Notes under the pieces: model-generated
Told to the model about the DNA's origin: nothing
The model's input: the letters and a program-made list of their open reading frames with translations, nothing else
The model's database searches: none
In this document: positions 5,416 through 64,000 of the stretch, piece after piece
Layout of the letters: each line of letters starts with the position of its first letter
How positions within the stretch are numbered: position 1 is the first letter of the stretch
Origin: an uncultured Rivularia sp.
GTDB taxonomy: Bacteria; Cyanobacteriota; Cyanobacteriia; Cyanobacteriales; Nostocaceae
Length of the DNA: 64,000 nt
Reading direction: 5' to 3'
NCBI GenBank assembly: GCA_963665115.1
Contig: OY762007.1
Location: 1,152,001 to 1,216,000, forward strand
Translations under genes and position numbers: made by a program

Positions 5416-5425
5416 TAATTAAAAT

Positions 5426-42251: not shown

Positions 42252-42447
42252 GGGGGGAGAGGGGACAAGGAGACAAGGGAGGGAATAATAAATCGAGTTT
42301 ATGATGATTCAAATATATGAATTAAAATGTGCTGAAATCTTTACCCAGTCCTATTCATAGGACTTTCGCTATTAGCTTGGGGTTTGCAACCCCAAGGGTG
42401 GGAATATTCACCAATCAATTTGATATAACCCAAGCGGGTGGGAATAT

Positions 42448-45035: not shown

Positions 45036-47285
45036 TTAAGGTGCAGTAATCACGGCTACCGGACAATGGGCTTTTTTCAAAATCGCATCAACTCGATGGC
45101 CGAAGAAAACCCGCCCAGTTACCATGCGGATATTGCTACCAAGAATAATTAGGTCAAAGTTTTGATTTTCAGCATAGGTAAGAATTTCCATTTCTGCACT
45201 GGTTCCTTTAAGAATGCGGGTTTTGACATCAGCGCCAAAACTGCGACCAATTACAGCTTGTTGTTCGAGTAAATCGCTGGCAATATCTTTCATCGGGTTT
45301 AAGGTTCGCCTTTCATAAAGGATATACTCTATCGGCGGCAAGTTAATCACGTTGACGATTGTAATTATTGCCCCCGTCTGAGCAGCAATTGTACTCGCTA
45401 CCTCTACGGCATTTTTGCTGTATTCGGTTCCTACCGTGGGGACGAGAATGTTCTTTAACTGTTGTTGAGTGGTTCTAGAACTTTCTGCCTCGGCTTCACT
45501 TAAATGCGACTTGACCACCATTGTTGCACAAGGGGCTTCTTGAATTACCCGGTCAACTAATAAATTAAATAGTGAATCTTTGGAACGAGTTTTTTCGGAT
45601 GCTCCTAGCACAATTAAGTCATACCCTTTATTAGCTTCATTGATAATTGCTTCTACTTTATTAGATCCCAATTCTGTTTTTTTCTGAAGGGTGGCATCAG
45701 CAGGTAGCTGCATTACTTCAGAAGCAGCAGCAAAGGCTTCTTGAGCGACGGTATCTTTTACCGCTGTTGCTGCTTGACTTGCTTCAGCAGACTTTTCATT
45801 AGCATACAAAAGTGTTACTTCTGTATGATTTTGATGCGCCATATAGCCGACTAATTGCGCTGCAAGTTGGATGTTTGCACCACCGCGAGTGGGTATCAAA
45901 ACGCGATGTATCTGCTTAATAAAACTGCGGCTGGCGAGTTCTTCTTGCTCCAAACGTTGTGCTTCTTCTTCACCAATAGCCACTTTCGACAAAGACCAGC
46001 GCAATAGAGGTGGAGCCATCAGCGAAGTAATAATTGCCACCATTAAGATAATCGAATACATTTGGGGATTGAGAACACCCAAAGATAAACCAATTGTGGC
46101 TACGACAATTTCCATCGCTCCACGGGCATTCATCCCCGAACCCATCGCCATGCCTTCCCAATGGCTCAAACCGCCGACGCGAGAACCGAGGTAAGCTCCT
46201 GTAAATTTTCCTACACAGGCTACGGCAAGAACGAGCAGACCAAAGATGAAAGTTTGCGGAGCTAAAAGAGCCAGTAAATTAACTTTCAAGCCAGCTGAAG
46301 CGAAGAAAATCGGCGCGAGAAAAGCGGCGGTGAAAACTTCGAGGGTGCGACCGGCTTCACTATTGAAACGGCGCGATTGTCCGACGAGAATCCCCACCAC
46401 AAAAGCGCCCAAAGCGGCTTCTAAACCTAAGTACTGAGTAAAAGCTGCGGCCAGGAAGGATATAACCAGCAGCATCGATAAACTAGCGGTAACTCCGCCA
46501 ACTTTGTCATCTACCCAGCGGAATATTTGGTCTACAATTGTCCGTCCGATTGTGAAGGCGATCGCCAAAAATAAGATGGCGGCACTTACCGAACGAAAAA
46601 CAGTAGCGAAGTCAAATTTACCACTGCTAGCCAACCCGGAAACCACGGAAAGTAAAATCCAGCCGATGGTATCATCGGTCATTCCTGCTGCCAAAGTGAC
46701 TTGACCGATATCGCGGCGAATCAAATTCAAGTCCATCAGTACTTTGGCAATCACAGGCACCGCCGAAATACTCATCGCGGTGGCAATAAACAAGCTGAAA
46801 ACCAATCTCTTGCTGGGGTCTGCTAAAAAGTTCTCAGGTAAAAACCAGCCGAGTACGAATCCGGTAAGAAACGGAATCAAAATTCCACCGAGTGAAATCA
46901 GCAAAGCCGTTTTTCCCTTGCGGATAATCAACTTCAGGTCGGTTTCTAGCCCGGTGACAATCAGCAAACACAGCACGCCCAACCAAGAAACTACTGATAA
47001 TAGATCGGACTGTTGTTGGCTTTCGGGAAAAATCTGAACCTGTAAGCTGGGAAACAACAAGCCAAAGAATGAAGGGCCAAGCAGCACACCTGCAAGTAAT
47101 TCCCCGACAACAGGTGGGAAGTTAATTCGTCGCATTACCTCACCCAGTCCCCGCGAAACCAGCAGCAACAGCGATAGTTCTAACAGCACCAACAGCAACT
47201 GATGATGACCTAGCGGTTTAATTAAATGTCCGCCTGCCCCTTCGGGCGTTACAAGAAACTGAAGCATTAAGGACAGGTTTTCCAT
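45036..47285 (-). CDS. Cation:proton antiporter (CPA2) with two C-terminal universal stress protein domains
   Basis: Multi-TM domain (VGELLAGVLLGPS, MTDD, MNARG) and two USP domains (DLIVLGAS, DLIILGS..., AHCPVAVI). Confidence 0.9.
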   Translation of the reverse strand: MENLSLMLQFLVTPEGAGGHLIKPLGHHQLLLVLLELSLLLLVSRGLGEVMRRINFPPVVGELLAGVLLGPSFFGLLFPSLQVQIFPESQQQSDLLSVVSWLGVLCLLIVTGLETDLKLIIRKGKTALLISLGGILIPFLTGFVLGWFLPENFLADPSKRLVFSLFIATAMSISAVPVIAKVLMDLNLIRRDIGQVTLAAGMTDDTIGWILLSVVSGLASSGKFDFATVFRSVSAAILFLAIAFTIGRTIVDQIFRWVDDKVGGVTASLSMLLVISFLAAAFTQYLGLEAALGAFVVGILVGQSRRFNSEAGRTLEVFTAAFLAPIFFASAGLKVNLLALLAPQTFIFGLLVLAVACVGKFTGAYLGSRVGGLSHWEGMAMGSGMNARGAMEIVVATIGLSLGVLNPQMYSIILMVAIITSLMAPPLLRWSLSKVAIGEEEAQRLEQEELASRSFIKQIHRVLIPTRGGANIQLAAQLVGYMAHQNHTEVTLLYANEKSAEASQAATAVKDTVAQEAFAAASEVMQLPADATLQKKTELGSNKVEAIINEANKGYDLIVLGASEKTRSKDSLFNLLVDRVIQEAPCATMVVKSHLSEAEAESSRTTQQQLKNILVPTVGTEYSKNAVEVASTIAAQTGAIITIVNVINLPPIEYILYERRTLNPMKDIASDLLEQQAVIGRSFGADVKTRILKGTSAEMEILTYAENQNFDLIILGSNIRMVTGRVFFGHRVDAILKKAHCPVAVITAP

Positions 47286-47504: not shown

Positions 47505-47725
47505 CTAGTAGTTCTTTTCATTAATTCTGAGGGGTTCGTTTTCGACCTAACGTCGGGAGACGTAGCACTGCTACGTCTCTACAACCCATCAAAACAAATG
47601 AAAAGGACTACTAGTAGTTGATTGCATAAATTCTGATGGGTACGTTTTCGACCTAACGTCGGGAGACGTAGCACTGCTACGTCTCTACAACCCATTAAAA
47701 CGGCTGGAAAAGGACTACTAGGAAG
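47505..47725. repeat. Tandem duplication (period about 105 bp) of a REP element with core GAGACGTAGCACTGCTACGTCTCTAC
   Basis: Two near-identical units; related copies at about 44815-44920, 52160-52270 and 14018-14050. Confidence 0.85.
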
Positions 47726-47847: not shown

Positions 47848-48616
47848 CTACCTATTTTCCCCAAGAATGGGTTTGTTCGATAAGTGTTGCAAGCCAACAT
47901 TATTTAATAGCTGCAACCAATCTCTAGCAAGAGTCTTATTCTGGGGATTTTCTCGACGAAGTTTGACTAATTCTGTTAAAGCTGAATACCAAATACCATT
48001 CTGAGCGTAAAAAGCAACTCGCTGACGGGGAGAAGCTACGCCACTTAATTGCTTTTGCTGGTTTGGTTGTAGGGCTACTCTTCGCACCCATCCGCGCACG
48101 TAAATAGGAGTAGTTGATTTATCGCGATCGCAATACAGTTTAAAATACCACTGGTAGGTTTTATCAATTTCTAAAGATTGCCCGGAAGCAAGACTAACAC
48201 CAACAATTCCTTCACCTTTATTTATCGGGAAATCGGGTCCGATATACATCATTATCAGCTTCATCTTGCAAGACAAATTCTCCTTTGGGTATCTTGCTCG
48301 ATTTATAAGGAATAAATAACCAAAATGTCGGATTAGATCCTACTACTTTACCAACTTGCTTTTCTGGAATTAAAGCAGTCAGCGGCATATCTGTAGCAGG
48401 ACAATCGTTACGGCTCCCCATTCCTCTTCTTTTCGTTGGTCTTCCTCGATTATCTCCACTTTGCTGCTTTTTTTTTTGCTGTATTTGGATTTTGGGAGCA
48501 TTTCTACTAATTTGGCTTTGTGATGCTGTTACTGGTTCATACCAACTTAAATTAGTCAACGTTAATAAGGGAATAATGCTAAATCTAGTTAGGTTTAATA
48601 TTTTATTTTTCATCAT
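47848..48616 (-). CDS. DUF928 family secreted protein, +1 frameshift at about 48236
   Basis: Signal peptide, GRPTKRRGMGSRNDC, LTALIP, PTFWLFIPY, YQWYF and YAQNGIWYSAL. Joins as VYRT|DFPIN after deleting one C in GGACCC. Confidence 0.85.
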
Positions 48617-48877
48617 AATTCTCCTTATCTTGAAAGTTTTATTTACATTTATTAAAAAAATTATTTTACATCAAATATTTTTGAATTGAATCATTGCAGA
48701 TAGCTTATCAAATTATCGATGAGGATTATAGAAAATAATTGTGTAACTTACGCATAACAATCCATAAGTTGTTTTATCTGTAAATATCTATTTAGTTGGA
48801 TTTTCTAAAATCTATGTTACTGTTTATTTTGTAGTTATTTCTGAAGAATATTGGAAATGAAATAAAAATAATTCGCT

Positions 48878-49093
48878 TAAGTCGGTTGGCACTAATAAAT
48901 CTAGCTATGTAACGAAAAGTAAAAATCTCAAACCCCTTGTGATGAGCCGCAGCTCAGACGCACCTCCGGTGAACGCTGAATGCTTCGTCGTGCCTCCATT
49001 CCCGCTTTTGGGAAGACTCCATGTTCAGCTTGCCTCACCGTTAGGGTAACGCAATGACAAATTATAGTTATGTTTATTTACACCCATCTACTT
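48878..49093. repeat. MITE-like element (TAAGT.GG...CC.ACTTA termini)
   Basis: Imperfect terminal inverted repeats; a related element lies at about 27305-27430. Confidence 0.5.
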
Positions 49094-49165
49094 ATTTAGT
49101 TATTTAGTTATTTAGTTTACTTAAATGACTTTTTGGATAATATTCTGTTCTTTTAAAGGAAAAAC

Positions 49166-49194
49166 TGCATAAATTTGTTTGAGGGGCACCTATA
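49166..49194 (+). promoter_or_regulatory. Candidate bipartite promoter TGCATAA-N16-CCTATA
   Basis: Matches the motif and spacing, 100 bp before ORF 49294. Confidence 0.68.
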
Positions 49195-49293
49195 TAGTGA
49201 GTAGAAGGATGGAGAAAGTTTTTTCATCTTCTGCAATTCAATTTTGCTGCAAAACAAAGTTCAAAAGTTTAGCGATTAGTAAGGATAAAAACC

Positions 49294-49647
49294 ATGAGCT
49301 TACAAGAAAATCAACCAAAATCAGAAACCACGGTTAATGAACAGTTAGAACAACTAAAAGATAAAATTGTTGATGCCCTCAGCAAGGCAATTAAAGATCC
49401 TGATATAGTCAATTCCATTGAGCAAGAGGATGGTTTACTAAAAAAATTAGTCAATGCTAAGTTTGTAATAGATTTGAATAAATTAAAGAAGAACGAAAAC
49501 TTAGAAATATGCTTACAAAATGAGCTTGATTTTAAGGAACCATCACCTAATGTACTCAACAATTGTGAATGTCAGTATATGGGAGAAACAGTAACATGTT
49601 GTGCATATAACAATCAGTTGTTCATCTTTATGTATGGAAAAAATTGA
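49294..49647 (+). CDS. Hypothetical 117-aa protein with a Cys-rich C-terminus
   Basis: AAGGA RBS; the tail reads NNCECQYMGETVTCCAY. Confidence 0.75.
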   Translation: MSLQENQPKSETTVNEQLEQLKDKIVDALSKAIKDPDIVNSIEQEDGLLKKLVNAKFVIDLNKLKKNENLEICLQNELDFKEPSPNVLNNCECQYMGETVTCCAYNNQLFIFMYGKN

Positions 49648-49835
49648 CATCATTTAACTGATTTTTGCTAACTTCATAACAAACATTTAACCGGACAGGA
49701 TATTTACATTCTCGGCTTTTCATTAGAAGTCGGGAATTTTTTTTATGTTTGTATGTCTAATATTAAATACTGCATCCTACATCATGTTACCAAAACGATG
49801 GTATTTTGTTGAGAGGTTCAATATGGAAATAGATC

Positions 49836-52137
49836 GTGAAAATTTCGAGGCATTGCTTCCAAAAAATTGCAGTTGCAATATTTTCGATTATCGCATTCTA
49901 CCCTAATGCTAATGCTCAAATCGTTCCTGATACAACTTTACCGAATAATTCGAGCGTAACTTCACAAGATAACATCAAACTGATTGAAGGTGGAACTCAA
50001 GCACAAACTAATCTATTTCATAGTTTTGAAGAGTTTTCCGTGCCTACTAATTCAACAGCATATTTTAACAATACAGCAAATATTCAAAATATTATTACCC
50101 GCATTACAGGAAAGTCTATCTCTAATATTGATGGCAAACTTCGTGCTAACGGTACGGCAAATTTATTTTTAATTAATCCTAATGGAATTGTTTTTAGCGA
50201 GAATGCTGCTTTAGATATTGGTGGTTCGTTTTTCGCAACTACCGCAAGTACTATTAACTTTACTGACGGTACAAAATTTAGCGCTACACAACCCCAAACA
50301 AAACCACTTTTAACTATAAATGTTCCTGCTGGGTTGCAATTTGGCACAACATCTGCATCCATCCGCAATCAATCCAAAGCTACTATTGATAATGCAAATA
50401 ATACATTTATACGACCTACGGGTTTACAAGTATCTACAGGCAAAACTTTAGCGTTGATTGGCGGTGATGTAATATTAGAAGGTGGCAATTTGAGCGTAGA
50501 TTCAGGACTAATTGAATTAGCTGCTGTTGCTAGTAATAGTTTAGTGAATCTCAACTCAACTGATAAAGGTTGGTTTTTAGGGTATGAAGGTGTAGATAAT
50601 TTTAGGAATATTCAACTAATTCAACGTAATGCTGATGGTTCAAAGATACAATCTTCTATAGAAGTTCGTAACAACGTAAACAGTGGTAACATTCAAATAC
50701 GAGGTGCAAAAGTTGAATTAATTGGTTTTAATATTATAAACCTAATTAATCAAATCGATCGAGATATTATCGATAATGGTAATTTGAATATTGATGCAAA
50801 CAAATTAGTTGCCCGAGATGGGGCACAAATAAGAAGTTCTAATAATGGCAACAGTTTCGGGGCAAATATAACAGTAAATGCCTCCGATTCGGTAGAAATC
50901 ATTGGTGGTTTTATTAGTCCCATTGGTTATATTTCTACTGCTTTGACTAGTAATACTGTCGCAGTTGGGAAAGCAGGTAATATTAACATTAACACCAGCA
51001 GAATGTTAATCCAAGATGGAGCCACTATCGGCGCTAACTCTATTGGTAAGAAATCGCAAAACTCTCAATTTTTTGCAGCTACAGGAGTAGCAGGAAATTT
51101 AACAGTAAATGCTTCTGATTCGGTAGAATTAATTGGCAGCTTTGAAACATATCCGAGCAGTTTGACTGCAAGTTCATTAGGTTTCACAAATGCGGGAAAT
51201 TTAACTATTTCCACAAAGCAATTAATTGTTAGAGATCGATCTGAAATTAGTGTCAGTAGCTTATTCACCCAAATTCCACAAAATGTAACTGTCATCGGCA
51301 ATGTAAGTAATATAGGAAATGCAGGAGAAACTCAGAATCACTGCCGATTCTATACTTTTAGATCGCCAAGGCAAGATAATTTCTGAAACCGACTCAGCAA
51401 ACGGAGGCAATATCAATCTTCAGTTAAAAGATTTATTATTAATGCGTCGCAACAGTCGAATTTCTACTAATGCAGGGAAAGCAGAATTTCTAGGTGATGG
51501 TGGTAATATCAGTATTAATATTCCCAATGGTTTCATAGTTGCCATACCTGAAGAAAACAGCGATATCACTGCGAATGCTTTTACTGGTAATGGTGGAAAA
51601 GTTGATATTAATGCTGTTGGTATTTTCGGCATTCAACCCCGCAGTCGAGATGAATTAACAGAACTTTTATCTCCTCAAAACCCCAGCGAATTAAATCCCC
51701 AAGAACTTTTAACCAGCGATATTACAGCAATTTCTCAGCAAAATCCAAATTTAAACGGTGAATTAAATATTATTGCAACTGATGTGGAACCGACAAGACA
51801 ATTAGTGGAATTACCAGAGATACCAGTTGATACGAAAGTTTCTCAAGTTTGCAGATTTCGTAGAGGTAATCAAAGCGAATTTGTCTTTTCTAGACGTGGT
51901 GGTTTACCTCCTTTACCAAGTGAAGCTTTGAGGGAGGATTCTGCTTTGGGTGTTGGTTGGGTGGAGGGAGAGATGGGGAGAAGAATCCAAAATCTAAAAT
52001 CTAAAATCCAAAATAGAAGAATTCAAAATCCAATTGTTGAAGCTACAGGTTTGGTTAAAGATGAAAATGGCGATATCTTGTTTGTTGCCGAGCAACCTTC
52101 TAAAAGTAGCGATAATTTTAAGAGGTTTGGTTGTTAA
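49836..52137 (+). CDS. Filamentous-haemagglutinin N-terminal (TpsA) protein, +1 frameshift at about 51329
   Basis: AQIVPDTTL, NLFHSF, NLFLINPNGI and C-terminal ENSDITANAF. Joins as NAGE|LRITAD. Confidence 0.88.
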
Positions 52138-52237
52138 CGATGTAATTTTTTTCTCTCTACTACTACTCCTTTTCATTAATTTTAACGGGTTGTAGAGACG
52201 TTATACATAACGTCTCCCGAAGATTACGGGAAAAACG

Positions 52238-52485
52238 AACCCTTCAGAATTTATGCAATCAACTACTACTCCACCACATAAGTTTTGCGGGGTAATCAAA
52301 ATGTAGTGGGAGCGTCTCGCTCCCTCGTGACAACCAGCGAGCTTTCCGGCTCGCACTCCCAGAACCCTTCAGAATTTATGCAATCAACTACTACTCCACC
52401 ACATAAGTTTTGCGGGGTAATCAAAATGTAGTGGGAGCGTCTCGCTCCCTCGTGACAACCAGCGAGCTTTCCGGCTCGCACTCCC
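52238..52485. repeat. Direct tandem duplication, period 125 bp, with internal palindromes
   Basis: AACCCTTCAGAATTTATG...GGCTCGCACTCCC starts at 52238 and again at 52363. Confidence 0.9.
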
Positions 52486-52595
52486 GAAACCCCGCAGAAT
52501 TATCGTGGTTAACTACTCCCTACTCCCCCAATCTCAGAATAAAATGCTTAAATTCTAAGAGAAGACAGGAGAACCTGAAGGTGAATGGCTGTTAG

Positions 52596-54959
52596 TTAAA
52601 TTAGTTTTTTTAGTCTGTAGGTTGCAATGCTACCGCTACCAGCCATCAAAGCAAACACTGAAGGAATAAAGGGTATCCAACCACCTTGAATTAATATTGT
52701 ATAGCAAAGAAAATATAATACAATTTGGGTTAAGCCTAAAGTTAATGCTAATTGCAAGGATGATTTACTTTTCCAAGCTAGCATTCCGCCAACTATTGCC
52801 CAACAGTAAATCCAAAGTGCTTCTGTCCATTTTGACCATACCCATAATAATGGTCTATTATCAAGCACTGCGCTAAGAATTTGACTTACCATATGTGCGT
52901 GTATAACTACCCCCGAAGTTTTCTTTTGTGGAGATGTGGCAGCACTATAGGATGTTGACCAATAATTATTAAAGCTTTGGGCGGTTGTGCCAATAATCAC
53001 AATTTTATCTCGAACTAAATCGGGTTTAATTTTATTGTTAAGCACGTCTTGAAGGGTAACATGGGTTGCAACTTCCCTTGTAGAACGCCAATTTAACATT
53101 ATTTGATAGCCGAGACTATCGATATTACTGTAACTACCGCTATTATCTTCTAAATATGGCAGAACAAAATTATTACCTGATTTGGGGTTTTCTTCTGGAT
53201 TGAGTTTGAATTCTCTGTTTTCTTGAGCTAAGTAACGCTCTGCTAATTGAAAGCTAAAGGATTTGTCGGTATTGCAAGGTTGTGCCGGAGTCATCGCTAA
53301 TAAATGACGGCGTAGAATTCCGTCCGAATCTTCTACAACGTCAGTAAAACCCAAATTTTGTGGGGATTCTGGAGGTGATGGTACGCCGGGGTTTTCATCT
53401 CCTTCGCTGACTTGACAAACTCCAATAAATTTGGAACTTGTTTTCATCCATTTAGCTAAATTTGCATATTTGGGTTTAACGGGATTATCTCGATAAATAT
53501 TTAAACCGATGATGCGGGGGTTATATTTTTCTAATTTATCGATCAATTTTGCTAAAGCGCCATCGGAAATTGACGCAGCACCTCTTTCATCGGCATTCTG
53601 TGCCTGTACATCTGGCTCAGTAATTTTTACGATCAAAATGCGATTATCTTTGCCTTCATCGGGACGCGATCGCATCATACTGTCAAATGCTCTAAGCTCC
53701 CAATGCTCTAATAATCCGAAACTTCGCGCTCCCACAATTGCTGTTGCGATCGCCAAACCAGCGCTTAAAACTACAGGTATAATTTGACGCAGATTTACGT
53801 GATGATTATTAAGTGTTTGCGAGTATTGAATGGGATTAGACCAAACTAAAGGTGCTTCGGTAGGATTTTGACATATCACTGGCAACCAACTTGCACAGGG
53901 AAATTCTGCTTCTAAACCTTGCAATTTTTCCCCAGCTTCGCGTACTGCCCGATAAAATGATTTAGATTCGGAAAAACCTGATAGGAAAAACTGTAAAAAT
54001 CTTTGTGCGACTAAATCCGGTACGGGTTCGCGCATGACAATCATTTGCGGTATATGTAATGAAGTTAATTGCGTTGCTAATCCCAAACCATCGCAAGAAT
54101 TAAAGATTGCTAACCGTAACCCCCGCGATATTGCCGCTCTCAAACCGTTTTTTAATTGCTCGATTGTTAAACTATCATCTCTGTTAATATAAATTCGCCC
54201 ACTTTCTCCATTTCCTTGACTCGAACTATGTCCGGCAAAAAATAAGATATCCCATCCTCTTTCATCCCACAGCATCAAATCTAATTCTTGACGCTGAGCT
54301 TCTACTAAAAAAATTGTTTCCGCACCAGGTAAATTTTCTAATATTAATCTATCTTCTTGAATATCAATATTTTCGCTATGACCTAATATTGCTAATATTC
54401 TGATTTTATCTCTGAATGGTTTGTAGCTGCTTTCTAACCGTTCAAAATCCAATTTACTCAAACAGAAAACAGCATTTGGGTAATCATCAAAAAAGTCCCA
54501 TAAGTTCCAAGGTAATCGCCGTATCTCATCTAAATCTGTTTGAATAATTACCTGAATCTCTTCGCTAGGATTTAATTTTGTGCGTAATTTTTGTTCTAAA
54601 TTAACAAAAGTAGGGCAGTTGAGCCAAGTATTAAACTTATTTTTTAAATTTTCACATAAATTATGAAATTCAACCGATGAAATATTAGTTACATCTTCTG
54701 AATCAATTTCAATTTCATCATCCGATTCATATTGCTGTCGCCAAGTCAAATCAGGAATCAAAGAATCATAAAGCAAATTGTAAAGAATCTGCCAGCGTGT
54801 ATAAAGTTGGGTAAGCTCTGGTGCCGCAGGTAAACTTCCAGTAAACTGAATGGGGAAAAGATTTACGTCTCCATCGCGCTCGTAAATTTGAGCGATCGCA
54901 CTATCAAATCCCTCTTGTAAGCTACCTTTTCCCAGATTTAATACGACTAATTTACTCAT
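52596..54959 (-). CDS. CHAT (caspase-clan) protease - TM - CHASE2 sensor - TM receptor
   Basis: CHAT motifs LPW, FFAGHS (His), IFNSCDG (Cys) and WLPVICQNP. CHASE2 motifs DNRILIVKI, DSDGILRR, DKIVIIGTTA and GVVIHAHMVSQIL, then three TMs. Confidence 0.9.
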   Translation of the reverse strand: MSKLVVLNLGKGSLQEGFDSAIAQIYERDGDVNLFPIQFTGSLPAAPELTQLYTRWQILYNLLYDSLIPDLTWRQQYESDDEIEIDSEDVTNISSVEFHNLCENLKNKFNTWLNCPTFVNLEQKLRTKLNPSEEIQVIIQTDLDEIRRLPWNLWDFFDDYPNAVFCLSKLDFERLESSYKPFRDKIRILAILGHSENIDIQEDRLILENLPGAETIFLVEAQRQELDLMLWDERGWDILFFAGHSSSQGNGESGRIYINRDDSLTIEQLKNGLRAAISRGLRLAIFNSCDGLGLATQLTSLHIPQMIVMREPVPDLVAQRFLQFFLSGFSESKSFYRAVREAGEKLQGLEAEFPCASWLPVICQNPTEAPLVWSNPIQYSQTLNNHHVNLRQIIPVVLSAGLAIATAIVGARSFGLLEHWELRAFDSMMRSRPDEGKDNRILIVKITEPDVQAQNADERGAASISDGALAKLIDKLEKYNPRIIGLNIYRDNPVKPKYANLAKWMKTSSKFIGVCQVSEGDENPGVPSPPESPQNLGFTDVVEDSDGILRRHLLAMTPAQPCNTDKSFSFQLAERYLAQENREFKLNPEENPKSGNNFVLPYLEDNSGSYSNIDSLGYQIMLNWRSTREVATHVTLQDVLNNKIKPDLVRDKIVIIGTTAQSFNNYWSTSYSAATSPQKKTSGVVIHAHMVSQILSAVLDNRPLLWVWSKWTEALWIYCWAIVGGMLAWKSKSSLQLALTLGLTQIVLYFLCYTILIQGGWIPFIPSVFALMAGSGSIATYRLKKLI

Positions 54960-55136
54960 ATTTCCGAGCAGGTAAACCTTTCGAGTATAAAATTATATTT
55001 TATTTTGACATCTTTGGGGGCTACTTAAATATTAAACAATTCTGTTTTTATAGTACGACTCCTTGAGCAAATATAGAATCTGTACCAAAAAAATGCTACC
55101 CAAATTACTAGCTGAATCTACTTGTTACTCATGCTT

Positions 55137-56384
55137 CTAAGCAAGCCCCTCAATGACAAAATTCTCTTTGATTTTAATATCCTTGCAAGCTACTTGAATA
55201 CTAAAATATTTACCGAGGGGTAGTTTGAATCGTTTCAATTGAATGTAATTATCGTAACTTCTAGATTCGACAGATTGTAAAGCATTTCCAGATTCGGAAA
55301 GCAAAGTTAATTGCACGTTGTCTGGTAAATAACTTTCCCCGGAAGCTGGATAAAGCTGCACTCGGATACCGACTTTGTTATCAACTTGCGGTGATAAACC
55401 AATTAATAAAGCCACTGATTTACTCTCTAACTGCATCCCCAAATCAATAAGTTTGGCTCCTTTAACACAAACTTCATTTAAAACCGAATCGCTTCTGAAT
55501 TGAAAAGTTCTCGTATCAGTTAAGCCGAATAAATCATCAACAGAACGCCAACCTTCATGAAAAATATTTTCAAACCACGAACTCAAATTATGTACGACTT
55601 TTTGGCTGTTTTCCATAAAATTAACTTGTGAATTTTTTATCCTCTGGTTGTACAAAATAGTACGATATTTTTGCGCCGATAAGATTGCTCCCCATTCTGA
55701 AAATTTCATATATAAGCGAGGTGAATAAACAGTCGGCTTGCTTAATTTTTCTATAATTTGCTTTGCTTGAAACTCCGATAAACTTGGCAAAGTTTGCACT
55801 TGTGGTTGTTCGAGAGTACAAAGCTCCTGGGCAACCCACATAATATCAATATCCGCAATCAAATCGCGGTTGCTTACACAATAAGTTCTATCCATTGAAT
55901 CATATTGTGCTTTTTCACGAATTTGCTGATGGCTAATAAAACCCCAAATTCTTAACCAACCCTCCTCAACATTTAACTGTACCTTCATATAATAATTAGC
56001 AGCCCAATTAGGGATATCAACCCATTCTTGGGGAATGCGAAATTCAGTTGGATAGCTTTGTTCATTTGGAACTAAAACCAATCGAGAACGATCGAAGTTT
56101 AAATCAATTCCATTCACAAATTCACATTGCCGAAATGAATCTTCAGATAGCTCGGGTATCTGCAATTTTTCTAGTAAATCCGGTTCATTCTTTAACAATT
56201 TGACAAAAGTATTTAAACACAAGCGATTTACAAAAACCCTATTTACTTCGGCATCATTTCGATAGTTCTCTTTTACAGTTTGTTGCCATGCTATTTCTCG
56301 TTCTTTAGCTGAAAAATCTACCCATAAATATTCGTGGTAAATTTCTCTCAAATCATCAAATTGCAACATATGACTATTAATCAT
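55137..56384 (-). CDS. DUF1822 family protein (candidate anti-sigma partner)
   Basis: EFRIPQEWVDIPNWAANYY, LSSWFENIFHEGW, GAKLIDLGMQ and VQLYP. Confidence 0.85.
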   Translation of the reverse strand: MINSHMLQFDDLREIYHEYLWVDFSAKEREIAWQQTVKENYRNDAEVNRVFVNRLCLNTFVKLLKNEPDLLEKLQIPELSEDSFRQCEFVNGIDLNFDRSRLVLVPNEQSYPTEFRIPQEWVDIPNWAANYYMKVQLNVEEGWLRIWGFISHQQIREKAQYDSMDRTYCVSNRDLIADIDIMWVAQELCTLEQPQVQTLPSLSEFQAKQIIEKLSKPTVYSPRLYMKFSEWGAILSAQKYRTILYNQRIKNSQVNFMENSQKVVHNLSSWFENIFHEGWRSVDDLFGLTDTRTFQFRSDSVLNEVCVKGAKLIDLGMQLESKSVALLIGLSPQVDNKVGIRVQLYPASGESYLPDNVQLTLLSESGNALQSVESRSYDNYIQLKRFKLPLGKYFSIQVACKDIKIKENFVIEGLA

Positions 56385-56393
56385 TTTAAAAAA

Positions 56394-57923
56394 TTATCCT
56401 TGTTTTAGCTGTATCCATCGATCTACCACATCAACTATTTTGGCATTTACCACAGATAGCGAATCTCTTTGTAAACACATAGTCCTTTCCACGTACTGTT
56501 TGAAACACTCTAAGAATCTAAGCTTTACCGCTGCTGATTCATTTAATTCTTTTAAATCATTATTATAATCTTTAACAATGAAGCTGTTTGGAGATTTAAT
56601 ACTAATAAATATACTTGTTTGTTCTTCATAACTAAACTGTTTAATAATTTCATCCAATATAGAAAAAATCAGTTGCTGGCAATAAAGCTGTAAGCATTTG
56701 TCCAAAGCAGATTTTATTCTTTCAATATCTTTTTCATTATTAAGATAGATATCTGGATTCGTTTTATTCCATTCCGAGGCAAACTCCTTTATAATAGTTC
56801 TACTATATTTTTTTAACTGACGGGCTACTTGATACTGCTTTTGTAAATCAGAATATTTATATTTAAGAAGATTGGCTATTTCAGTTTGAGTTAAATTTAA
56901 GCCCTGCCATAATTTGAAAATCATTTGACATAATTCTGGCATACTCGTAAATAATTTATCAAAAATCGTTTCTAGGTTTTGAAATTCTTCCTGCTGTATT
57001 AATACATCCCATCTAGAAGGTGCGGGATTTGATAAACCGTAATAATCTTCCTCAAAATATAAATATTCCTTGTTACGGTAATTTTTAGCTGCTTTTATAC
57101 AAGTTGAAAGCATTTCTAAAATTGCAATCTTTGTTGCAGGTGGAGAATTAATATTAAATTGATTGCATCGTTGATTATAATAACTAGCAATTTCCGTCAA
57201 TTCATCATGTGAAGGTTTTTGCGCCGAACCCGAACGGCTAGGTGTCATGTGAAAAAGTTCATTAAAACATTGCCAAGCTAAGCGATGTGAAACAACTTGT
57301 TGAGCCGGAATTTGCGCGACTAAAGCATCATTTAATTCTCCAGCACTTAAATCTTTCAATAAACCGTAACTTGAAAATCTTGTTCTTCTCGCTTCCAAAT
57401 CTTGTCGATAGATTTGGTTGCGAATAAATCTTTTAAAAGCAGTTATCGCGTATGCTTCTATATTTATTTGATTACGCTCAAAATTAAAATTATTAAAAAA
57501 CTTGCGTGGTGAATTTGCGGCGATATTTGCTATTTGAAAAAATTCTTCTAAAGAATATTTATGTTTGATATACTTAAATTCATGATGTATATCTTTTGCT
57601 GCTTTAAAACAGGCTTCTTGCAAATAAGCAGAAAAATGTTTTTTAGCCGTAGAGCAACAGCAATCTGGATTAAATTGACGTAAACTTTGATTATTCGACT
57701 GCTCTTGGATAAGTAAAGCTTTTAAAAAATATTGTGCCCAAAAACTTTCCTTAGCATCTGGATCTGCTTCTACTTTTGATCTCATATTTTTTTCAAGCGG
57801 TGCATCGTGCTTCCAACTCAATTGAATTTGAGAATTGTTGGCTGTAAAACAGATAAAGCTAGAAAACTTATCAACTAAATTCTTACGTTTTTTTACAAGC
57901 ATTGATTTTTCCAAAAACATCAA
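56394..57923 (-). CDS. Sigma-70-family (HetZ-like) factor 2
   Basis: VDKFSSF, HFSAYLQEAC and HTH LTQTEIA...KQYQVARQL; homologous to 18288-19482. Confidence 0.78.
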   Translation of the reverse strand: MMFLEKSMLVKKRKNLVDKFSSFICFTANNSQIQLSWKHDAPLEKNMRSKVEADPDAKESFWAQYFLKALLIQEQSNNQSLRQFNPDCCCSTAKKHFSAYLQEACFKAAKDIHHEFKYIKHKYSLEEFFQIANIAANSPRKFFNNFNFERNQINIEAYAITAFKRFIRNQIYRQDLEARRTRFSSYGLLKDLSAGELNDALVAQIPAQQVVSHRLAWQCFNELFHMTPSRSGSAQKPSHDELTEIASYYNQRCNQFNINSPPATKIAILEMLSTCIKAAKNYRNKEYLYFEEDYYGLSNPAPSRWDVLIQQEEFQNLETIFDKLFTSMPELCQMIFKLWQGLNLTQTEIANLLKYKYSDLQKQYQVARQLKKYSRTIIKEFASEWNKTNPDIYLNNEKDIERIKSALDKCLQLYCQQLIFSILDEIIKQFSYEEQTSIFISIKSPNSFIVKDYNNDLKELNESAAVKLRFLECFKQYVERTMCLQRDSLSVVNAKIVDVVDRWIQLKQG

Positions 57924-58058
57924 ACTTCACCATAGAGCCATTTAAATTTTTGCTTCTCCTATATTTATTGATATACAAAGCATCAAATTAACATTTAATT
58001 CATAGAAGTTAACAATTACTTACTGTACTTCGCACGCTCGCCAAGCGTTACATATATT

Positions 58059-58087
58059 TATGGGCACCCAGATAAATCGGTTATGCA
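58059..58087 (-). promoter_or_regulatory. Candidate bipartite promoter TGCATAA-N16-CCCATA upstream of sigma gene 2
   Basis: Minus strand TGCATAACCGATTTATCTGGGTGCCCATA. Confidence 0.62.
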
Positions 58088-58480
58088 GTTTTAAAGAATT
58101 TTTCTCAAAACAGATCGAATATCAAGCTAAAACTCCGTGCAACCATCGGTGTTTTTTTGAAATAACTGTAGTTAAGTAAAATTATTCGTCTCGATTTCTT
58201 TGATGCTGCCAAAGTTGCTAATTCTTTTAACCCGTCTGGTTTTGAATAAAAAAACCGCTATCTGATGATAGCGGTAAAGGAGTTGTAAAAAAATTCAGTA
58301 ATTGTAAGTTGGGTTAGATACTTTTCTAATTTGAGGTTTTATTTCCGAATCCATATAGCGTTGTAACCTAACATCTTGCAGGTATATCCTAACGGTGGCG
58401 TTGGGTTACGACATCATGAGTAAAGATATTTGTAATAATCAAGATTGATTTTGGTGTCTAACTCAACCTACGAACTTTTT

Positions 58481-59308
58481 TTATTCTCCGTAATAGTCAA
58501 CCGAGCCGTAATCATACAGTACATCACCGAGAGTGCTATTCATGCTGCCTTCGATTGAAAGCTGAAGAGGTAATAATGCGTCACCCACAGCTGTATTTTG
58601 TGGAGTTTCTTTTTCAACAACTCCTAACCAACCAGTATCATCGTATTCAACATCAACTAATTCCCATCCTTGATTCGCGAATTTTTGTCGAAAATTTCCT
58701 ACAAGTTCATCAAAAGTATCTCCGCCGATTGCACCACTTGTAATACTAGAATCTTGTTGAAAAGTTCCAAACCAAATACCATCACCGTATTCAATATCAA
58801 TTAAGTCATATCCGTTATTCGACATATTTTGAATATCTTCTTTAAATTCACCATTACTACTAGCTGTTTCATAAGCATTAAGCCCAGGAACATCACTAAA
58901 AGTTCCAAACCAGATACCATCACCGTATTCAACATCAACTAATTCATATCCTTGATTCCATAACTGCGAAATATCTTGTGTAAGTTCGGTAAGACTATTT
59001 GCGATGCTATAGTTGTTAGCACCAGAATTTTCTTCAAAAGTTCCAAACCAGACACCATCATCGCCGTATTCAACGTCAGTTAAGCGATATCCTCCTACTT
59101 GCCACTGTTGTTGAACTATTTGTCCGAGTTCCGAAGCACTGCTTGCAGGGGCAAAACCAGTATTATTAGGTGTGTCTTGATACGATGCAATCCATTTACC
59201 GTCACCATATGTAGTACCGATTAAATCATATCCTTCACTCAAACTTACTAGTATTCCTTGTTGAAATTCCTCAAGATTTTCGCTGATAGAGTAAACATTA
59301 TTAGCCAT
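58481..59308 (-). CDS. Acidic tandem-repeat protein (five units of about 47 aa, BTRD1-like)
   Basis: Repeated GY(E/D)L(V/I)D(V/I)EYGDG(I/V)WFGTF. The family name is tentative. Confidence 0.75.
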   Translation of the reverse strand: MANNVYSISENLEEFQQGILVSLSEGYDLIGTTYGDGKWIASYQDTPNNTGFAPASSASELGQIVQQQWQVGGYRLTDVEYGDDGVWFGTFEENSGANNYSIANSLTELTQDISQLWNQGYELVDVEYGDGIWFGTFSDVPGLNAYETASSNGEFKEDIQNMSNNGYDLIDIEYGDGIWFGTFQQDSSITSGAIGGDTFDELVGNFRQKFANQGWELVDVEYDDTGWLGVVEKETPQNTAVGDALLPLQLSIEGSMNSTLGDVLYDYGSVDYYGE

Positions 59309-59583
59309 AATTTTGATCCTATATTTTGAAGTTTTAAAGATTAGCTCAAACCAAGCGACGAACTAGCACTCAGTCTTTTCGCTGTTGATAATATACACTT
59401 TAGATCGAGTTCAAATATTAAGCATTACACTTTTATGCATACTGGAGTGTAGTTTTGGGAAAAGAGCGATCGCACCATTGCACAAAACTATATTGCAATT
59501 GTTACCTTATGTAAGATTTGATTTATCTATCAGGCTATGTTAAGTATCATAAAATATATTTTGATCGGTATATAAGCGTAGCT

Positions 59584-62500
59584 ATGTGCATAAAAAGCAG
59601 GTTTTATAAGGGTTTGCGGTTAGGTTTAACAGGAATTACTAGCTGTGTAAGTGTACTTTTAATTACAAATCAAACCCTGGCACAGCAAAGTAATATTGTT
59701 CCCGACAACACTTTGGGTGTAGAAAATTCTCGTTTAAACCGCGATGTTTTGATTAATGGGATTAATGCAGACACTATTGATGGTGGAGCAACACGGAATA
59801 GCAATCTTTTTCACAGTTTCAACGAGTTTAATATTAACAATGGGCAAACAGTATATTTTCTTAACCCTGCTGGTATCGAGAATATCTTGACACGGGTAAC
59901 TGGTGGGAATGCATCGAATATTTTTGGCACTTTGGGAGTTGATGGTGCTGCGAATTTGTTTTTGATTAATCCCAACGGAATTGTATTTGGAGAAAATGCC
60001 AGTTTAGATTTACAAGGCTCGTTTGTGGGAACAACTGCTTCGGGATTGCAGTTTGGTGAACAAGGTAATTTTAGCGCTACAAATCCGGAAGTACCTGGTA
60101 GTTTAACCATTAATCCTTCGGCTTTATTTTTCAATCAAGTAGAAGCGAGTGGGGGAATTATTAATAATTCTCAAGCATTCGCAGAGATAAATCCCTATGG
60201 ATTTGAAACTACAGGATTAAGAGTTCCTAATGGTAAAAGTTTATTGTTAGTGGGTGGTGAGATTAATTTAGATGGTGGAAATTTAACAGCTGACGAAGGA
60301 AATATTGAATTAGCTTCTGTAGCTGCACCGGGAAAGGTAGGATTAAATATTTCAGGTGATACTTTTAGTTTAAATATTCCGAAAGATGTGGATTATGGAG
60401 ATATTTCTTTAGCGAATGAATCTTATTTAAGTGTTTTTGGTGCAGGTGGGGGAAATATTGAAATAAATGCTGGTAATTTAGAGATTTCCGATTCAATTAT
60501 ATTAGCTGGACTGAGCGAAGATTCAATAAATCCTAATGTGAAAACTGGAGAGATTAATATTAATGCAACTGGTTCAATTGAACTTAAAAATGATGCTTTG
60601 ATTAATAATGCTATTCAAGGTAAAGGAAATGCTGGTGATATAAATATTAATGCTGGTGAAAGTATTTCCTTAAATGGAAATGGTACTGTATTTTTAAATA
60701 GTGTAAACGATGATTTAATTACTGGCATCATTAGTTTTGTTGCAGACGAAGCTGTAGGTAATGCAAGTAATATTCAATTAACTACAGGTACTCTTTCTGT
60801 TAATAATGGGGCTTTTATTAGTACCCGTATTTTTGGTAAAGGAAACGCAGGTAATATTACTATTAATGCTCGCGACGCTGTTAGATTTGACAAATATGGT
60901 AATGCTGGTACTGATACTTTGCTTAATGCAGTTGGTAAAGGCGGAGATATTCGGGTTTTTACCGGAACTTTATCGTTGACTGAGGGAGGTCAATTAACTA
61001 CCAACGCATTTGGAAAAGGAAATGCAGGTAATATTTATATAGAAGCTCGCGATAGCGTTAATTTGGATGGTTTTTTATTAATTTCAAATATAACGGGAAT
61101 AGATACTAGTATATTTGATATAGGTGGTGTTCCTGTTTTGAGCGGTATTCAAAGTAATTTATTAATAGGTACGGGTAAAAGTGGAGATATTCAAATCAAC
61201 ACGGGTTCTCTTTTAGTAAACAATTTGGCGGGTATATTAGCTAGTACAAATGGAAATGGAAATGCTGGCAATATCACTATAAATGCTCGCGATACTGTTA
61301 CCTTTAGCGAATTAGGAAATGCTCAAAGTATATCTAGTATTAATGCGACTGGGAATGGTGCTGATATACGTATTACCGCAGGTGAATTGTTATTAAAAGA
61401 CGGTGGTTTTTTTCAAACAGCTAGTATTGAAAAAGGAAATGCAGGTAATATCTTTCTGGATGTCCGAGACACAATTACTGTGGATGGTTTTTCACGAAAT
61501 CGAATAGCACCAAGTGCAGTCAATGCTTATGCAAATAATGGTAATGCAGGAAATATTGATGTAAAAACTGGTTCGCTATTTTTAACTGACGGTGGTTTCA
61601 TGGCTGCTTTTCTAATCGGTAAAAATAACGATGAAAACATTGCAAACGCCGGTAATATCACAATTAATGCTCGCGATAAAGTTAAGATAGATGGTGAAGT
61701 AAGCAGTTTACAAAGTAGTTTAGTTAGTGGATTTGGGAAAGCAGGTAATATCCAAATTACAGCAGATTCGTTTTCTATTAGTAATAATGGTGAAATTAAT
61801 AGCACTACGAGTGGAGAGGGTAACGCTGGAAATATTACATTTAACGCGAATGTTTTTGAAGCTGTTAACGGTGGACGAATTACTACCACTACCTTGAGTA
61901 ACGGTGATGCTGGTACTATCAACCTCAATATTAAAGATAAAATTACTTTGTCTGGAAGCGAATTGCCGACGGGTTTATTTGCCAGTACTGCTCCTAACTC
62001 TGGCGGAAAAGGCGGTTCCATTAATATCGATCCGCGCTTAGTAATTATAGAAAACGGAGCAGCGGTATCGGTTGGTAGCGATGGAAGCGGAGATGCAGGG
62101 AATATCACATTACAAGCAGGAACTCTGCAATTAAATAACGGTTTTATCACTGCTCAAACAGCAAGCACCCAAGGTGGTGATATCAACTTACAAATAAGCG
62201 ACTTATTATTACTCCGCAACGAAAGCCAAATCACCACTACAGCAGGAACAGCACAAGCTGGGGGAGATGGTGGAAACATCGATATCAATTCTAAATTTAT
62301 CGTCGCACCACAAAACGAAAACAGCGATATCACCGCAAATGCTTTCACTGGTAATGGTGGTAAAGTTAATATCAATAGTAGCGGTATTTTTGGTATTGAA
62401 AGACAGCAAGATGTAACCGGAAAAAGCGATATTACTGCAAGTTCTCGACTTGGTATTTCTGGTGAAACAAATATCAACGCAGACGATACAAGTTCAATTC

Positions 62501-62793
62501 AAAATAGCTTTACCGAACTTCCTCCAAACATCGACACCGACGCAATAATTGCTAATAGCTGTATAGCAAGAAGTAGTCAAAAACAAGAAAACTCTTTTAC
62601 GAATACGGGTACTGGTGGTTTAGCTAGCAATCGTCCCCCCGGTAACGTTTTGGTTTCTAATTACGCAACTGGTGAAGTTAGGAATATTGACGCTAAAAAT
62701 CAAGATTGGAAAAAAGGGGATGCGATTGTTGAACCCCAAGGGTTGTATCGGATGGAAAATGGGGAATTATTATTAAGTCGGGAGTGTAATTAA
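59584..62793 (+). CDS. Filamentous-haemagglutinin N-terminal (TpsA) beta-helix protein
   Basis: Signal peptide, NIVPDNTLG, NLFHSF, NPNGI, repeated GNAGNITINA and ENSDITANAF. Confidence 0.92.
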   Translation: MCIKSRFYKGLRLGLTGITSCVSVLLITNQTLAQQSNIVPDNTLGVENSRLNRDVLINGINADTIDGGATRNSNLFHSFNEFNINNGQTVYFLNPAGIENILTRVTGGNASNIFGTLGVDGAANLFLINPNGIVFGENASLDLQGSFVGTTASGLQFGEQGNFSATNPEVPGSLTINPSALFFNQVEASGGIINNSQAFAEINPYGFETTGLRVPNGKSLLLVGGEINLDGGNLTADEGNIELASVAAPGKVGLNISGDTFSLNIPKDVDYGDISLANESYLSVFGAGGGNIEINAGNLEISDSIILAGLSEDSINPNVKTGEININATGSIELKNDALINNAIQGKGNAGDININAGESISLNGNGTVFLNSVNDDLITGIISFVADEAVGNASNIQLTTGTLSVNNGAFISTRIFGKGNAGNITINARDAVRFDKYGNAGTDTLLNAVGKGGDIRVFTGTLSLTEGGQLTTNAFGKGNAGNIYIEARDSVNLDGFLLISNITGIDTSIFDIGGVPVLSGIQSNLLIGTGKSGDIQINTGSLLVNNLAGILASTNGNGNAGNITINARDTVTFSELGNAQSISSINATGNGADIRITAGELLLKDGGFFQTASIEKGNAGNIFLDVRDTITVDGFSRNRIAPSAVNAYANNGNAGNIDVKTGSLFLTDGGFMAAFLIGKNNDENIANAGNITINARDKVKIDGEVSSLQSSLVSGFGKAGNIQITADSFSISNNGEINSTTSGEGNAGNITFNANVFEAVNGGRITTTTLSNGDAGTINLNIKDKITLSGSELPTGLFASTAPNSGGKGGSINIDPRLVIIENGAAVSVGSDGSGDAGNITLQAGTLQLNNGFITAQTASTQGGDINLQISDLLLLRNESQITTTAGTAQAGGDGGNIDINSKFIVAPQNENSDITANAFTGNGGKVNINSSGIFGIERQQDVTGKSDITASSRLGISGETNINADDTSSIQNSFTELPPNIDTDAIIANSCIARSSQKQENSFTNTGTGGLASNRPPGNVLVSNYATGEVRNIDAKNQDWKKGDAIVEPQGLYRMENGELLLSRECN

Positions 62794-62943
62794 AGGTTCG
62801 TTCGTAGTTGCGCTTTAGCGCCAAATGTGTACAACGAAGACAGCGCAACTACGAACATATTTTTATTAATAGATAATGCGTTACGGCATAATTTAATTAA
62901 TAACTTTGCATTAAATTTATTCAACCCGTAACACACCCTATAA

Positions 62944-64000
62944 CCCACATTCCGCACCCTAAGTTTCAGAGGTAGGCGAAAACAGATTATTTAGTACTTT
63001 GATACTACTAGTTACAAGTTTTAAAAAGGAACTATTAATAATAAATTGCATTAGTGTTGATACATAGTTACTAAAAAGATTTTGAGGATAAATGCTTTCT
63101 TGAAGTTACATGAAAGAGTAAAAATAATTTATAACGAACAAAAAATGTCAAAATGAAAGCAGAAATCTCCCCCCGCCAGTTCTGTCTGCCATGTTTGATA
63201 TTAAAGACGTTGAAATAAAGAACATAGACCATTTGGGTATAGTAGCAGGGATAATAGATTCGATTGGGTTAGTAGAAATAATTAACGAGTCCATCGGTGT
63301 AAATGAAAACGAAAAAGTTAATGCTGGACAAGTTGTAAAAGCAATGATTTTAAATGGCTTAGGATTTGTTTCTAAGCCTTTATATATGTTTCCCAAATAC
63401 TTTGAGTCAATCCCTTGCGAGCATTTAATAGGTTCTGGAGTAAAAGCAGAATACTTAAATGACGATAAACTCGGTAGAGTAATGGATAAATTATTTATTA
63501 AAGGGCTTGATTCAATATTTTTGTCAATTACTTTAAATGTCATTAAAAAATTCAAAATATCTTTATCGACATCACATTTAGACTCATCATCTATGCACTT
63601 ACATGGAGAACATAATTCAAGCTTACCTGAAGTAGTATTTGATTCTCAAAAGGTAGAAAATAACGATCTGGAAGAAGAACTAAAAACTAAATCATTACAA
63701 CCAATAAATATTACATACGGATACTCTCGCGACCATAGACCAGATTTGAAGCAATTTTTAATAGAACTAATATGTAGTGATGATGGAGATATACCAATAT
63801 TCTTGAAATCAGCATCTGGTAATATTGTTGATTCTTCATGTTTTGGTCAAATTTTAGTTGATTATAAAAAACAACTACAAGTTGATAGTTTAATGGTTGC
63901 TGATTGTGCGCTATATACAGAACAAAATATCAAATTAATGTCAGAGATGAAGTGGCTATGTCGAGTACCTTTGAGTATTAAAGAAGCAAAGTTATTAACA
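62944..64000 (+). mobile_element. IS1634-family insertion sequence (left part)
   Basis: Putative left end CCCACATTCCGCA at about 62944, next to a REP-like unit; the transposase lies downstream. Confidence 0.75.
63191..64000 (+). CDS. IS1634-family DDE transposase, truncated by the window edge (not in the ORF track)
   Basis: Open frame MFDIKDVEIKNIDHLGIVAGIID...LNDDKLGRVMD...HLDSSS...ITYGYSRDHRPDLKQF...VADCALY. Confidence 0.92.
   Translation, partial: MFDIKDVEIKNIDHLGIVAGIIDSIGLVEIINESIGVNENEKVNAGQVVKAMILNGLGFVSKPLYMFPKYFESIPCEHLIGSGVKAEYLNDDKLGRVMDKLFIKGLDSIFLSITLNVIKKFKISLSTSHLDSSSMHLHGEHNSSLPEVVFDSQKVENNDLEEELKTKSLQPINITYGYSRDHRPDLKQFLIELICSDDGDIPIFLKSASGNIVDSSCFGQILVDYKKQLQVDSLMVADCALYTEQNIKLMSEMKWLCRVPLSIKEAKLLT

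Follow-up and report, generated by a model that had tools for sequence, protein, structure and literature searches.

A sigma factor, a DUF1822 protein, and a receptor joining an EACC2 domain, a CHAT protease, and a CHASE2 sensor form a core gene set that Kaur, Iyer, Burroughs, and Aravind catalogued computationally in 2021 (PMC8195603). In the sections of that paper considered here, the EACC2 of these EACC2-caspase systems is an alpha+beta domain ahead of the caspase, with TRADD-N in one subtype. As excerpted here, work on Anabaena reports that the CHAT protease HetF cuts PatU3 between Arg117 and Ser118 (PMC9457339), that HetZ is a proven extracytoplasmic function (ECF) sigma factor, and that PatU3 is its probable anti-sigma factor (PMC13342950). 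Here, we analyzed a locus of the catalogued kind in the 64,000-nucleotide stretch of an uncultured Rivularia genome shown above (the window; G000:C1:1152001-1216000 within a single-contig genome of 8.69 Mb, whose proteins find their nearest named relatives in Rivularia species). The locus is a genuine example of that kind, conserved and intact, to which we add a candidate cut site, putative promoters, and an unnamed output gene. On balance, we favor the reading that it encodes a protease-gated sigma switch, in which CHAT would cut DUF1822 after Arg297 and free the sigma factor for transcription of its own operon and of genes for secreted proteins. A preliminary description of the same DNA had proposed that CHAT cuts DUF1822; it overlooked the published gene set and a small cysteine-tailed gene behind one of the promoters. 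A domain scan of the open reading frames (ORFs) found every gene that it named in place. The core features are as follows, in window coordinates.

52596..54959, minus strand: receptor-protease, 787 aa, CHAT plus CHASE2 (Pfam)
55137..56384, minus strand: DUF1822, 415 aa, predicted anti-sigma factor (PF08852)
56394..57923, minus strand: sigma-like factor, 509 aa (TIGR02937 E 4.2e-10, below cut-off; structure model)
58060..58090, minus strand: putative sigma-operon promoter, motif 168 nt upstream

The sigma, DUF1822, and receptor genes are co-directional, with gaps of 9 nt (sigma-DUF1822) and 177 nt (DUF1822-receptor). The claim that the system is kinase-free held, with no kinase or receiver domain in the 11 ORFs scanned in 47848-64000; the same 11 ORFs contained no Cas families, and a search for arrays was not made. 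Gene neighborhoods were surveyed at 60 loci from 28 genomes, as full-length matches labeled by profiles from this genome's paralogues. Each locus reaches to about 9 kb or to the end of its contig, which makes neighbor counts lower bounds, and related loci are not independent. The expected co-location across genomes was borne out: a sigma-like gene lies directly upstream of 57/61 DUF1822 genes, far beyond chance. EACC2-CHAT genes were found within 8 kb of 42 of the 61 (directly downstream in 39), and 25 of these 42 carry CHASE2; in other EACC2-CHAT paralogues, periplasmic binding or nSTAND1 domains take the place of CHASE2. All 12 DUF1822 genes of this genome follow a sigma-like or helix-turn-helix gene, and several of these upstream genes are unrecognized by sigma models. 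A second sigma and DUF1822 pair, without EACC2-CHAT, lies at window 17053-19494 on the minus strand; its sigma gene is broken at 18795 by a base absent in 2/3 runs, and from 20266 the opposite strand encodes a protein with a caspase domain (Peptidase_C14). Elsewhere, a subclass (L106-L111, L119, L126) combines sigma, DUF1822, and a 350- to 400-aa gene of conserved length without CHAT, and its DUF1822 retains an A-G-A-R-type site.

The sigma-like factor scored 39.5 bits against TIGR02937 (cut-off, 42.9), compared to 101.2 for the closest paralogue. Its structure model (predicted local distance difference test score [pLDDT], 77.6) contains a sigma2-like domain at about residues 60-181 and a sigma4-like domain at about 309-390, plus insertions. 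The top fold matches of this model are mostly sigma factors, with Z scores of 7-9 that are only middling because the folds are mostly helical. SigA domain 2 matched residues 59-175 (Z 7.9; root mean square deviation [rmsd], 2.8; 106 aligned), and SigL region 4 matched residues 303-388 (Z 8.2; rmsd, 2.9; 80 aligned). With a threshold of E 0.001, Foldseek matched the sigma model to no sigma factor. As modeled, the protein has the sigma2 and sigma4 domains of a divergent sigma-70/ECF-type factor. The HetZ model NF037963 did not match it, and the true hetZ of the same genome lies elsewhere (641.9 bits).

DUF1822 was modeled as an N-terminal alpha/beta domain (residues 20-190), helices, a low-confidence disordered linker (255-304), and an Ig-like C-domain (309-410). 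The excerpted text of PMC8195603 calls it a TPR protein; in contrast, no TPR is visible in the structure model, which shows alpha/beta, linker, and Ig-like parts. Foldseek with DUF1822 gave one spurious match, and sequence searches of solved structures with the sigma and DUF1822 profiles found no relative of either chain. Csx30 and CalpT were not among the listed DUF1822 fold matches, which excludes neither. The pairing of sigma and DUF1822, assumed in the preliminary description, was supported by prediction of the complex, which scored 0.81 versus 0.00 for the best of three controls; the score mark is reached (roughly, with our own alignments) by 116/157 solved pairs versus 2/215 mismatched pairs. 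Prediction runs share at least 76% of contacts, with partner pLDDT of at least 76. All 53 DUF1822 contact residues lie within 5-225, a region predicted to cover the second sigma4 helix and the insertion domains of the sigma factor; the predicted contacts on the sigma side take in 345-347 and 362-383, both in the sigma4-like region. This model supports sigma-DUF1822 binding.

The DUF1822 N-domain also occurs apart from the rest of the protein. In family f29, it heads a protein of ~1,000 aa that also contains a membrane segment and matches TonB-C weakly (6/6 loci), and the next ORF is above the ECF sigma cut-off TIGR02937 in 3/3 tested. Judged by its sequence, this DUF1822-N fusion beside an ECF sigma factor has the build of a membrane anti-sigma factor. 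The f29 genomes measure 1.7-2.3 Mb and are presumably those of non-photosynthetic Vampirovibrionia. At L166-L171, a long acidic linker, the membrane segment, and the TonB-C-like end are followed by the ECF sigma gene and a double-zinc-ribbon/NTPase/TPR gene, an arrangement that is apparently an undescribed membrane anti-sigma system (34/38 genomes of f29).

The receptor comprises CHAT (residues 207-375), a transmembrane segment (393-411), CHASE2 (405-725), and a hydrophobic C terminus; the segments 393-411 and 739-757 were detected by hydropathy, whereas further C-terminal helices, below threshold in the 19-residue window, were seen by eye. Its CHAT motifs had been described as intact, and we confirmed both, FAGH244S and FNSC289. 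His244 and Cys289 are kept in 41/41 EACC2-CHAT proteins of >450 aa beside DUF1822 genes. Residues 1-155, to which EACC2 was assigned by architecture, are conserved (L43, P44, W56, W112, LPW149-151) and common to the 41 neighbors. The HetF model NF045509 did not match the receptor, and the true hetF of the genome lies elsewhere (1364 bits). HetF nevertheless has LPW, GHS, and FNSC in common with the receptor, and the EACC2-CHAT profile gives it 53.7 versus 28.1 from the profile of TPR-CHAT, a second type of CHAT protein. A quick tree with 46 rows, from which 4 rows without a His match were omitted, clustered HetF with EACC2-CHATs and not TPR-CHATs (SH-like approximate likelihood-ratio test [SH-aLRT], 91).

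The candidate cut site, Arg297, falls within the disordered linker of the DUF1822 model. It is invariant in 99/99 close homologues, in which Phe296 and Asp299 are nearly invariant and positions 290, 292, 300, and 301 vary. Across 73 diverse DUF1822 proteins, a hydrophobic/small-Arg-small linker motif was found in 61 (22.3 expected from shuffled segments), with Lys in 4 more, when searched in the 21 residues starting 9 past a conserved Trp with a pattern picked after viewing the alignment. Unguided hhalign laid FQFR/S of DUF1822 on PYR/S of PatU (probability, 1.9%; the slash marks the cut, putative in DUF1822). The Arg of Y-R-S is residue 117 in 4/4 PatU3-type ORFs of 258 aa, and R-S or R-G stands at the aligned Arg in 30/30 PatU sequences. 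A wider alignment paired the Ig-like C-domains of DUF1822 and PatU (hhalign probability, 20%; score, 26.0 versus ≤20.9 in 40 shuffles). In the Atlas language-model search, PatU took the top three places for DUF1822 with its own family left out (0.81), and DUF1822 was the first named family for PatU (0.82). DUF1822 and PatU are thus far weak reciprocal look-alikes, and Arg297 is a candidate cut site common to DUF1822 and PatU3.

The proposal that CHAT cuts DUF1822 thus has in its favor the predicted complex, a candidate cut site in common with PatU3, and an intact dyad, all of which derive from prediction or sequence comparison. In the mechanism that we favor, DUF1822 would keep the sigma factor inactive. 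A signal at the envelope would reach CHAT via DUF928 and CHASE2, and the activated, cytoplasmic CHAT would cut DUF1822 after Arg297, by analogy with HetF and PatU3. Since all sigma contacts lie upstream of this cut, release probably needs a second degradation, in which housekeeping proteolysis would remove the sigma-bound N-fragment, as suggested for Csx30. The freed sigma factor would then transcribe its own operon, the genes for a small protein and TpsA1, two other TpsA genes, and the gene for an exported TPR-CHAT. The flanking features are as follows.

47848..48616, minus strand: DUF928 (PF06051 matches on both halves)
49163..49193, plus strand: same motif as at the sigma operon, before the small gene (the "49166 promoter" of the preliminary description); top genome-wide score, 36.4
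49294..49647, plus strand: cysteine-tailed small protein, 117 aa, putative sigma target
49708..49737, plus strand: terminator-like hairpin between the small gene and TpsA1
49836..52137, plus strand: TpsA1, short TpsA-type exoprotein (PF05860), convergent with the receptor gene
58481..59308, minus strand: acidic repeat protein, 275 aa
59518..62793, plus strand: TpsA2, 1091 aa

The two putative promoters share the motif AACTGCATAA, about 17 nt, and then C[CT]AT at a fixed distance. It precedes the sigma gene in 17/17 orthologous loci. The guess of a promoter at 49166 survives as a conserved motif, present before the small gene in 11/15 loci. A looser form precedes DUF928 in 6/14 loci, and the motif stands before 1/9 TPR-CHAT entries (two with little upstream DNA). 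The exact motif occurs twice in the window and not in 100 shuffles, the pattern having been derived from these two sites. We scanned the genome with a matrix built from 21 sites of other genomes: 11 sites score ≥20, all of them intergenic, whereas five matrices with shuffled columns gave 0-2. The four best-scoring sites stand before the small gene, the sigma operon, a TpsA, and a TPR-CHAT. Lower-scoring sites stand before a further TpsA, a protein of 171 aa that looks exported, and a GMC oxidoreductase, and four lack a clear long ORF downstream; the GMC oxidoreductase site (window 14217, plus strand; score, 21.1) is 235 nt ahead of the gene at 14452-16071. The scan gave no match at TpsA2. A scan for sigma70 consensus promoters found 40 where 46 were expected, with nothing at 49166. 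Among the 12 sigma paralogues of this genome, only the sigma gene of this operon has the motif, which points to self-activation. TpsA and TPR-CHAT genes look like outputs rather than a first step because they carry or follow the sigma factor's putative promoter.

DUF928 follows the sensor. It lies near 21/25 CHASE2-type systems versus 1/17 other EACC2 systems and 0/19 without EACC2-CHAT, and probably acts with CHASE2 in the periplasm, as its partner or as a carrier of its ligand. Within this genome, DUF928 accompanies CHASE2 in 10/12 cases but DUF1822 in only 4/12; the genes therefore fall into two modules, one being the cytoplasmic switch of sigma, DUF1822, and CHAT, whose sensors are interchangeable, and the other an envelope set of CHASE2, DUF928, TPR-CHAT, and TpsA. 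Signal peptides of DUF928 and TpsA were seen by eye, the 19-residue hydropathy window staying below threshold. At the locus itself, DUF928 sits 4 kb from the receptor gene, beyond two opposite-strand genes. DUF928 and TpsA1 are each broken by a one-base frameshift (at 48235 and 51328), on which the preliminary description was silent. The extra base at 48235 is absent from contigs of 3/3 covering runs and that at 51328 from contigs of 2/3 (one study, possibly the source data), so we read the break in DUF928 as a likely assembly error and that in TpsA1 as a probable one.

The preliminary description had DUF928 and two TpsA genes flank the operon and placed them in a linear order ahead of CHASE2. 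The genes are in place and DUF928 tracks CHASE2, but TpsA looks like an output and TpsA2 is part of the next cluster. In genus loci, a short TpsA lies between receptor and DUF928 in 14/14, and a TPR-CHAT lies beyond DUF928 in 12/14; the window locus is one that lacks it. Just 3/16 (2 too short to tell) have TpsA2 and the 275-aa ORF beside the sigma gene. TpsA2 belongs to a TpsA-TpsB-TPR-CHAT-DUF928-CHASE2 cluster past the window that is interrupted by IS1634 (window 63191-64000, plus strand; G000:C1:1217375-1224481). The IS1634 lies between TpsA2 and a TpsB fragment, after which come TPR-CHAT, DUF928, and a CHASE2-only protein. The 275-aa acidic protein has DVEYGDG-like repeats, matches no family above cut-off, and accompanies TpsA2 rather than the core. 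Farther on (G000:C1:1286278-1290795), a single ORF of ~1500 aa joins a TpsA secretion domain to CHAT, beside TpsB and CHASE2 genes.

These neighborhoods bear on the alternative that TpsA or its product is the CHASE2 ligand, with the regulon then closing a positive feedback whose signal would be produced by exported TPR-CHAT, by TpsA, or by the cysteine-tailed peptide. We regard this as possible, though doubtful. Within 10 kb of CHASE2 in this genome lie not only DUF928 (10/12) but also TpsA (8/12) and TPR-CHAT (8/12). TPR-CHATs have hydrophobic N termini (13/16), the His motif (15/16), and the Cys motif (16/16), and their place beyond DUF928 in most genus loci also fits. However, TpsA was found within 8 kb of just 5/25 CHASE2-type systems (1/17 other EACC2 systems and 2/19 without EACC2-CHAT; all lower bounds), the window locus lacks TPR-CHAT and TpsB, and the putative promoter stands on TpsA and TPR-CHAT genes. 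No DUF928 fusion appeared among 1270 candidates, a weak test of this alternative.

The small protein has a conserved, acidic, helical-looking, leader-like front and a variable cysteine-rich tail, and it looks like a peptide precursor. Positional homologues occur in 13/14 genus loci. Its profile collected 110 clusters, 100 with at least 2 Cys in the last 25 aa, and found no match among Pfam or NCBIfam families. The family is present in 62/151 genomes of the host's family and in 5/251 of a class sample, all within that family. Outside the genus, TpsA is directly downstream of the small gene in 25/29 loci, and the motif precedes the small gene in 8/29 in strict form and in 16/29 as its first half (TGCATAA). 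This cysteine-tailed family linked to TpsA appears unnamed. Two hybrid ORFs (L200:2104-2625 and L205:2102-2617) join the Cys-rich tail of the small family to a signal peptide of the TpsA type and a portion of the secretion domain, and L046 has two copies of the small gene (5333-5608 and 6259-6744), one with a signal-peptide-like extension. A speculative extension, which we rate as a long shot, makes the small protein a strain-specific peptide signal precursor that would be expressed alongside TpsA by this sigma factor, exported, trimmed by a periplasmic TPR-CHAT, and read by DUF928/CHASE2 in a kin- or quorum-sensing feedback loop built of proteases without a kinase, with HetF-PatU-HetZ as a domesticated branch of a dozen-copy family.

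Kaur et al. (2021) offer a different account, in which the caspase activates or releases itself and DUF1822 is a sigma-bound adaptor rather than a substrate; section 9 of that paper proposes self-cleavage (PMC8195603). An Arg297 cut would indeed fall outside the sigma interface. In addition, EACC2-CHAT is absent from the 8 kb around 19/61 DUF1822 genes, most of them still with the Arg, which also speaks against the protease-gated switch. However, self-cleavage leaves an Arg fixed in a variable, disordered linker without a reason, and the related HetF is reported to cut a separate anti-sigma factor at the aligned Arg (PMC9457339). We consider self-cleavage unlikely. Still less probable is that DUF1822 is a sigma co-activator or chaperone whose cleavage turns the response off or retunes it: the predicted complex gives contact and not sign, and co-transcription is compatible with either, but the interface takes in sigma4-like residues and both PatU3 and Csx30 are inhibitors in the excerpted reports (PMC13342950, PMC10028731). 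Least probable is a role in immunity or cell death, in which the caspase would release DUF1822 as a latent nuclease effector: its N-domain matches PD-(D/E)xK nucleases (I-Ssp6803I, Z 7.9, rmsd 3.3, 118 aligned; Hjc, Z 7.1) and Kaur et al. put EACC2 genes among conflict systems (PMC8195603, as excerpted), but Z scores under 8 are middling, the catalytic Asp/Lys set is absent from the columns conserved in 60% of the 73 DUF1822 proteins, and the N-domain is occupied by the predicted sigma interface.

Several further results weigh against the protease-gated switch. The sigma-like factor falls below its family cut-off, and its likeness to HetZ is generic helix-turn-helix alone (probability, 13% or less). 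Under the chosen pattern, 8/73 diverse DUF1822 proteins have neither the Arg nor the Lys motif. The DUF1822-PatU alignments reach hhalign probabilities of just 2-20%, and Atlas scores count only as leads when below 0.9; searching the genome with profiles linked the two families in neither direction (PatU at rank 60, E 18; no DUF1822 in the PatU top 22). The grouping of HetF comes from a quick tree only. On the output side, the motif precedes TpsA1 in 0/15 loci, and the hairpin also lies ahead of TpsA1. The TGCATAA half is also found ahead of 13/58 other sigma genes, with all three classes represented; this sigma factor is therefore only the putative reader of the motif, and another regulator or a paralogue may read it.

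Elsewhere in the window, tandem copies of dispersed intergenic repeats lie at 47530-47720 and 52180-52520 (176 and 245 genome matches). A MoxR-like AAA ATPase gene and a DUF2201 vWA/metallopeptidase gene (40971-43449, minus strand) are found beside DinB (43656-44729) and a cation antiporter-Usp fusion (45036-47285), and three neighboring FGE-sulfatase-domain genes occupy 27791-33119.

If the protease-gated mechanism is true, filamentous cyanobacteria hold many alternative sigma factors gated by caspase-like receptors and not by kinases, and the heterocyst switch gains an evolutionary source. The locus offers handles for the bench in the Arg297 cut site, the His244/Cys289 dyad, two putative promoters, and a reporter gene.

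Compared to known systems, the locus has the build of the EACC2-caspase systems as given in the excerpts of PMC8195603: a caspase/CHAT near the N terminus, a variable C-terminal sensor such as CHASE2 with a transmembrane segment, and neighboring ECF sigma and DUF1822 genes. Those passages speak of self-cleavage and mention neither a substrate or cut site nor a promoter, TpsA, or small gene. In the literature searched, mostly open-access, we found no report of CHASE2 and CHAT with filamentous hemagglutinin, or of cyanobacterial two-partner secretion with CHAT. In the type III-E CASP system (Csx29-Csx30-CASP-sigma), as described in parts of PMC10028731, CHAT likewise cuts an anti-sigma factor whose N-terminal part binds sigma, release is thought to need further degradation, and sigma motifs lie within the system's own locus; unlike the receptor here, that protease is RNA-activated, Cas7-11-bound, and cytoplasmic. 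The likeness to HetF-PatU3-sigmaHetZ of Anabaena, according to excerpts of PMC9457339 and PMC13342950, extends to a membrane-anchored CHAT, an anti-sigma factor cut after Arg (a cut that is putative here), and independence from CRISPR. In both, an ECF-type sigma factor with insertions is encoded directly ahead of its inhibitor, and the inhibitor contacts sigma4 and the insertion domains, as measured for PatU3 and predicted for DUF1822 (PMC13342950, in part). In contrast, PatU lacks the N-terminal alpha/beta domain of DUF1822, and HetF has a periplasmic TPR and is genetically unlinked, whereas the receptor here has CHASE2 (PMC9457339, PMC13342950, in part). The locus is not orthologous to that system, since the genome has its own hetF, hetZ, and patU elsewhere. 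HetF-PatU3-sigmaHetZ is thus the closest tested analogue of this locus, which is not a member of it.

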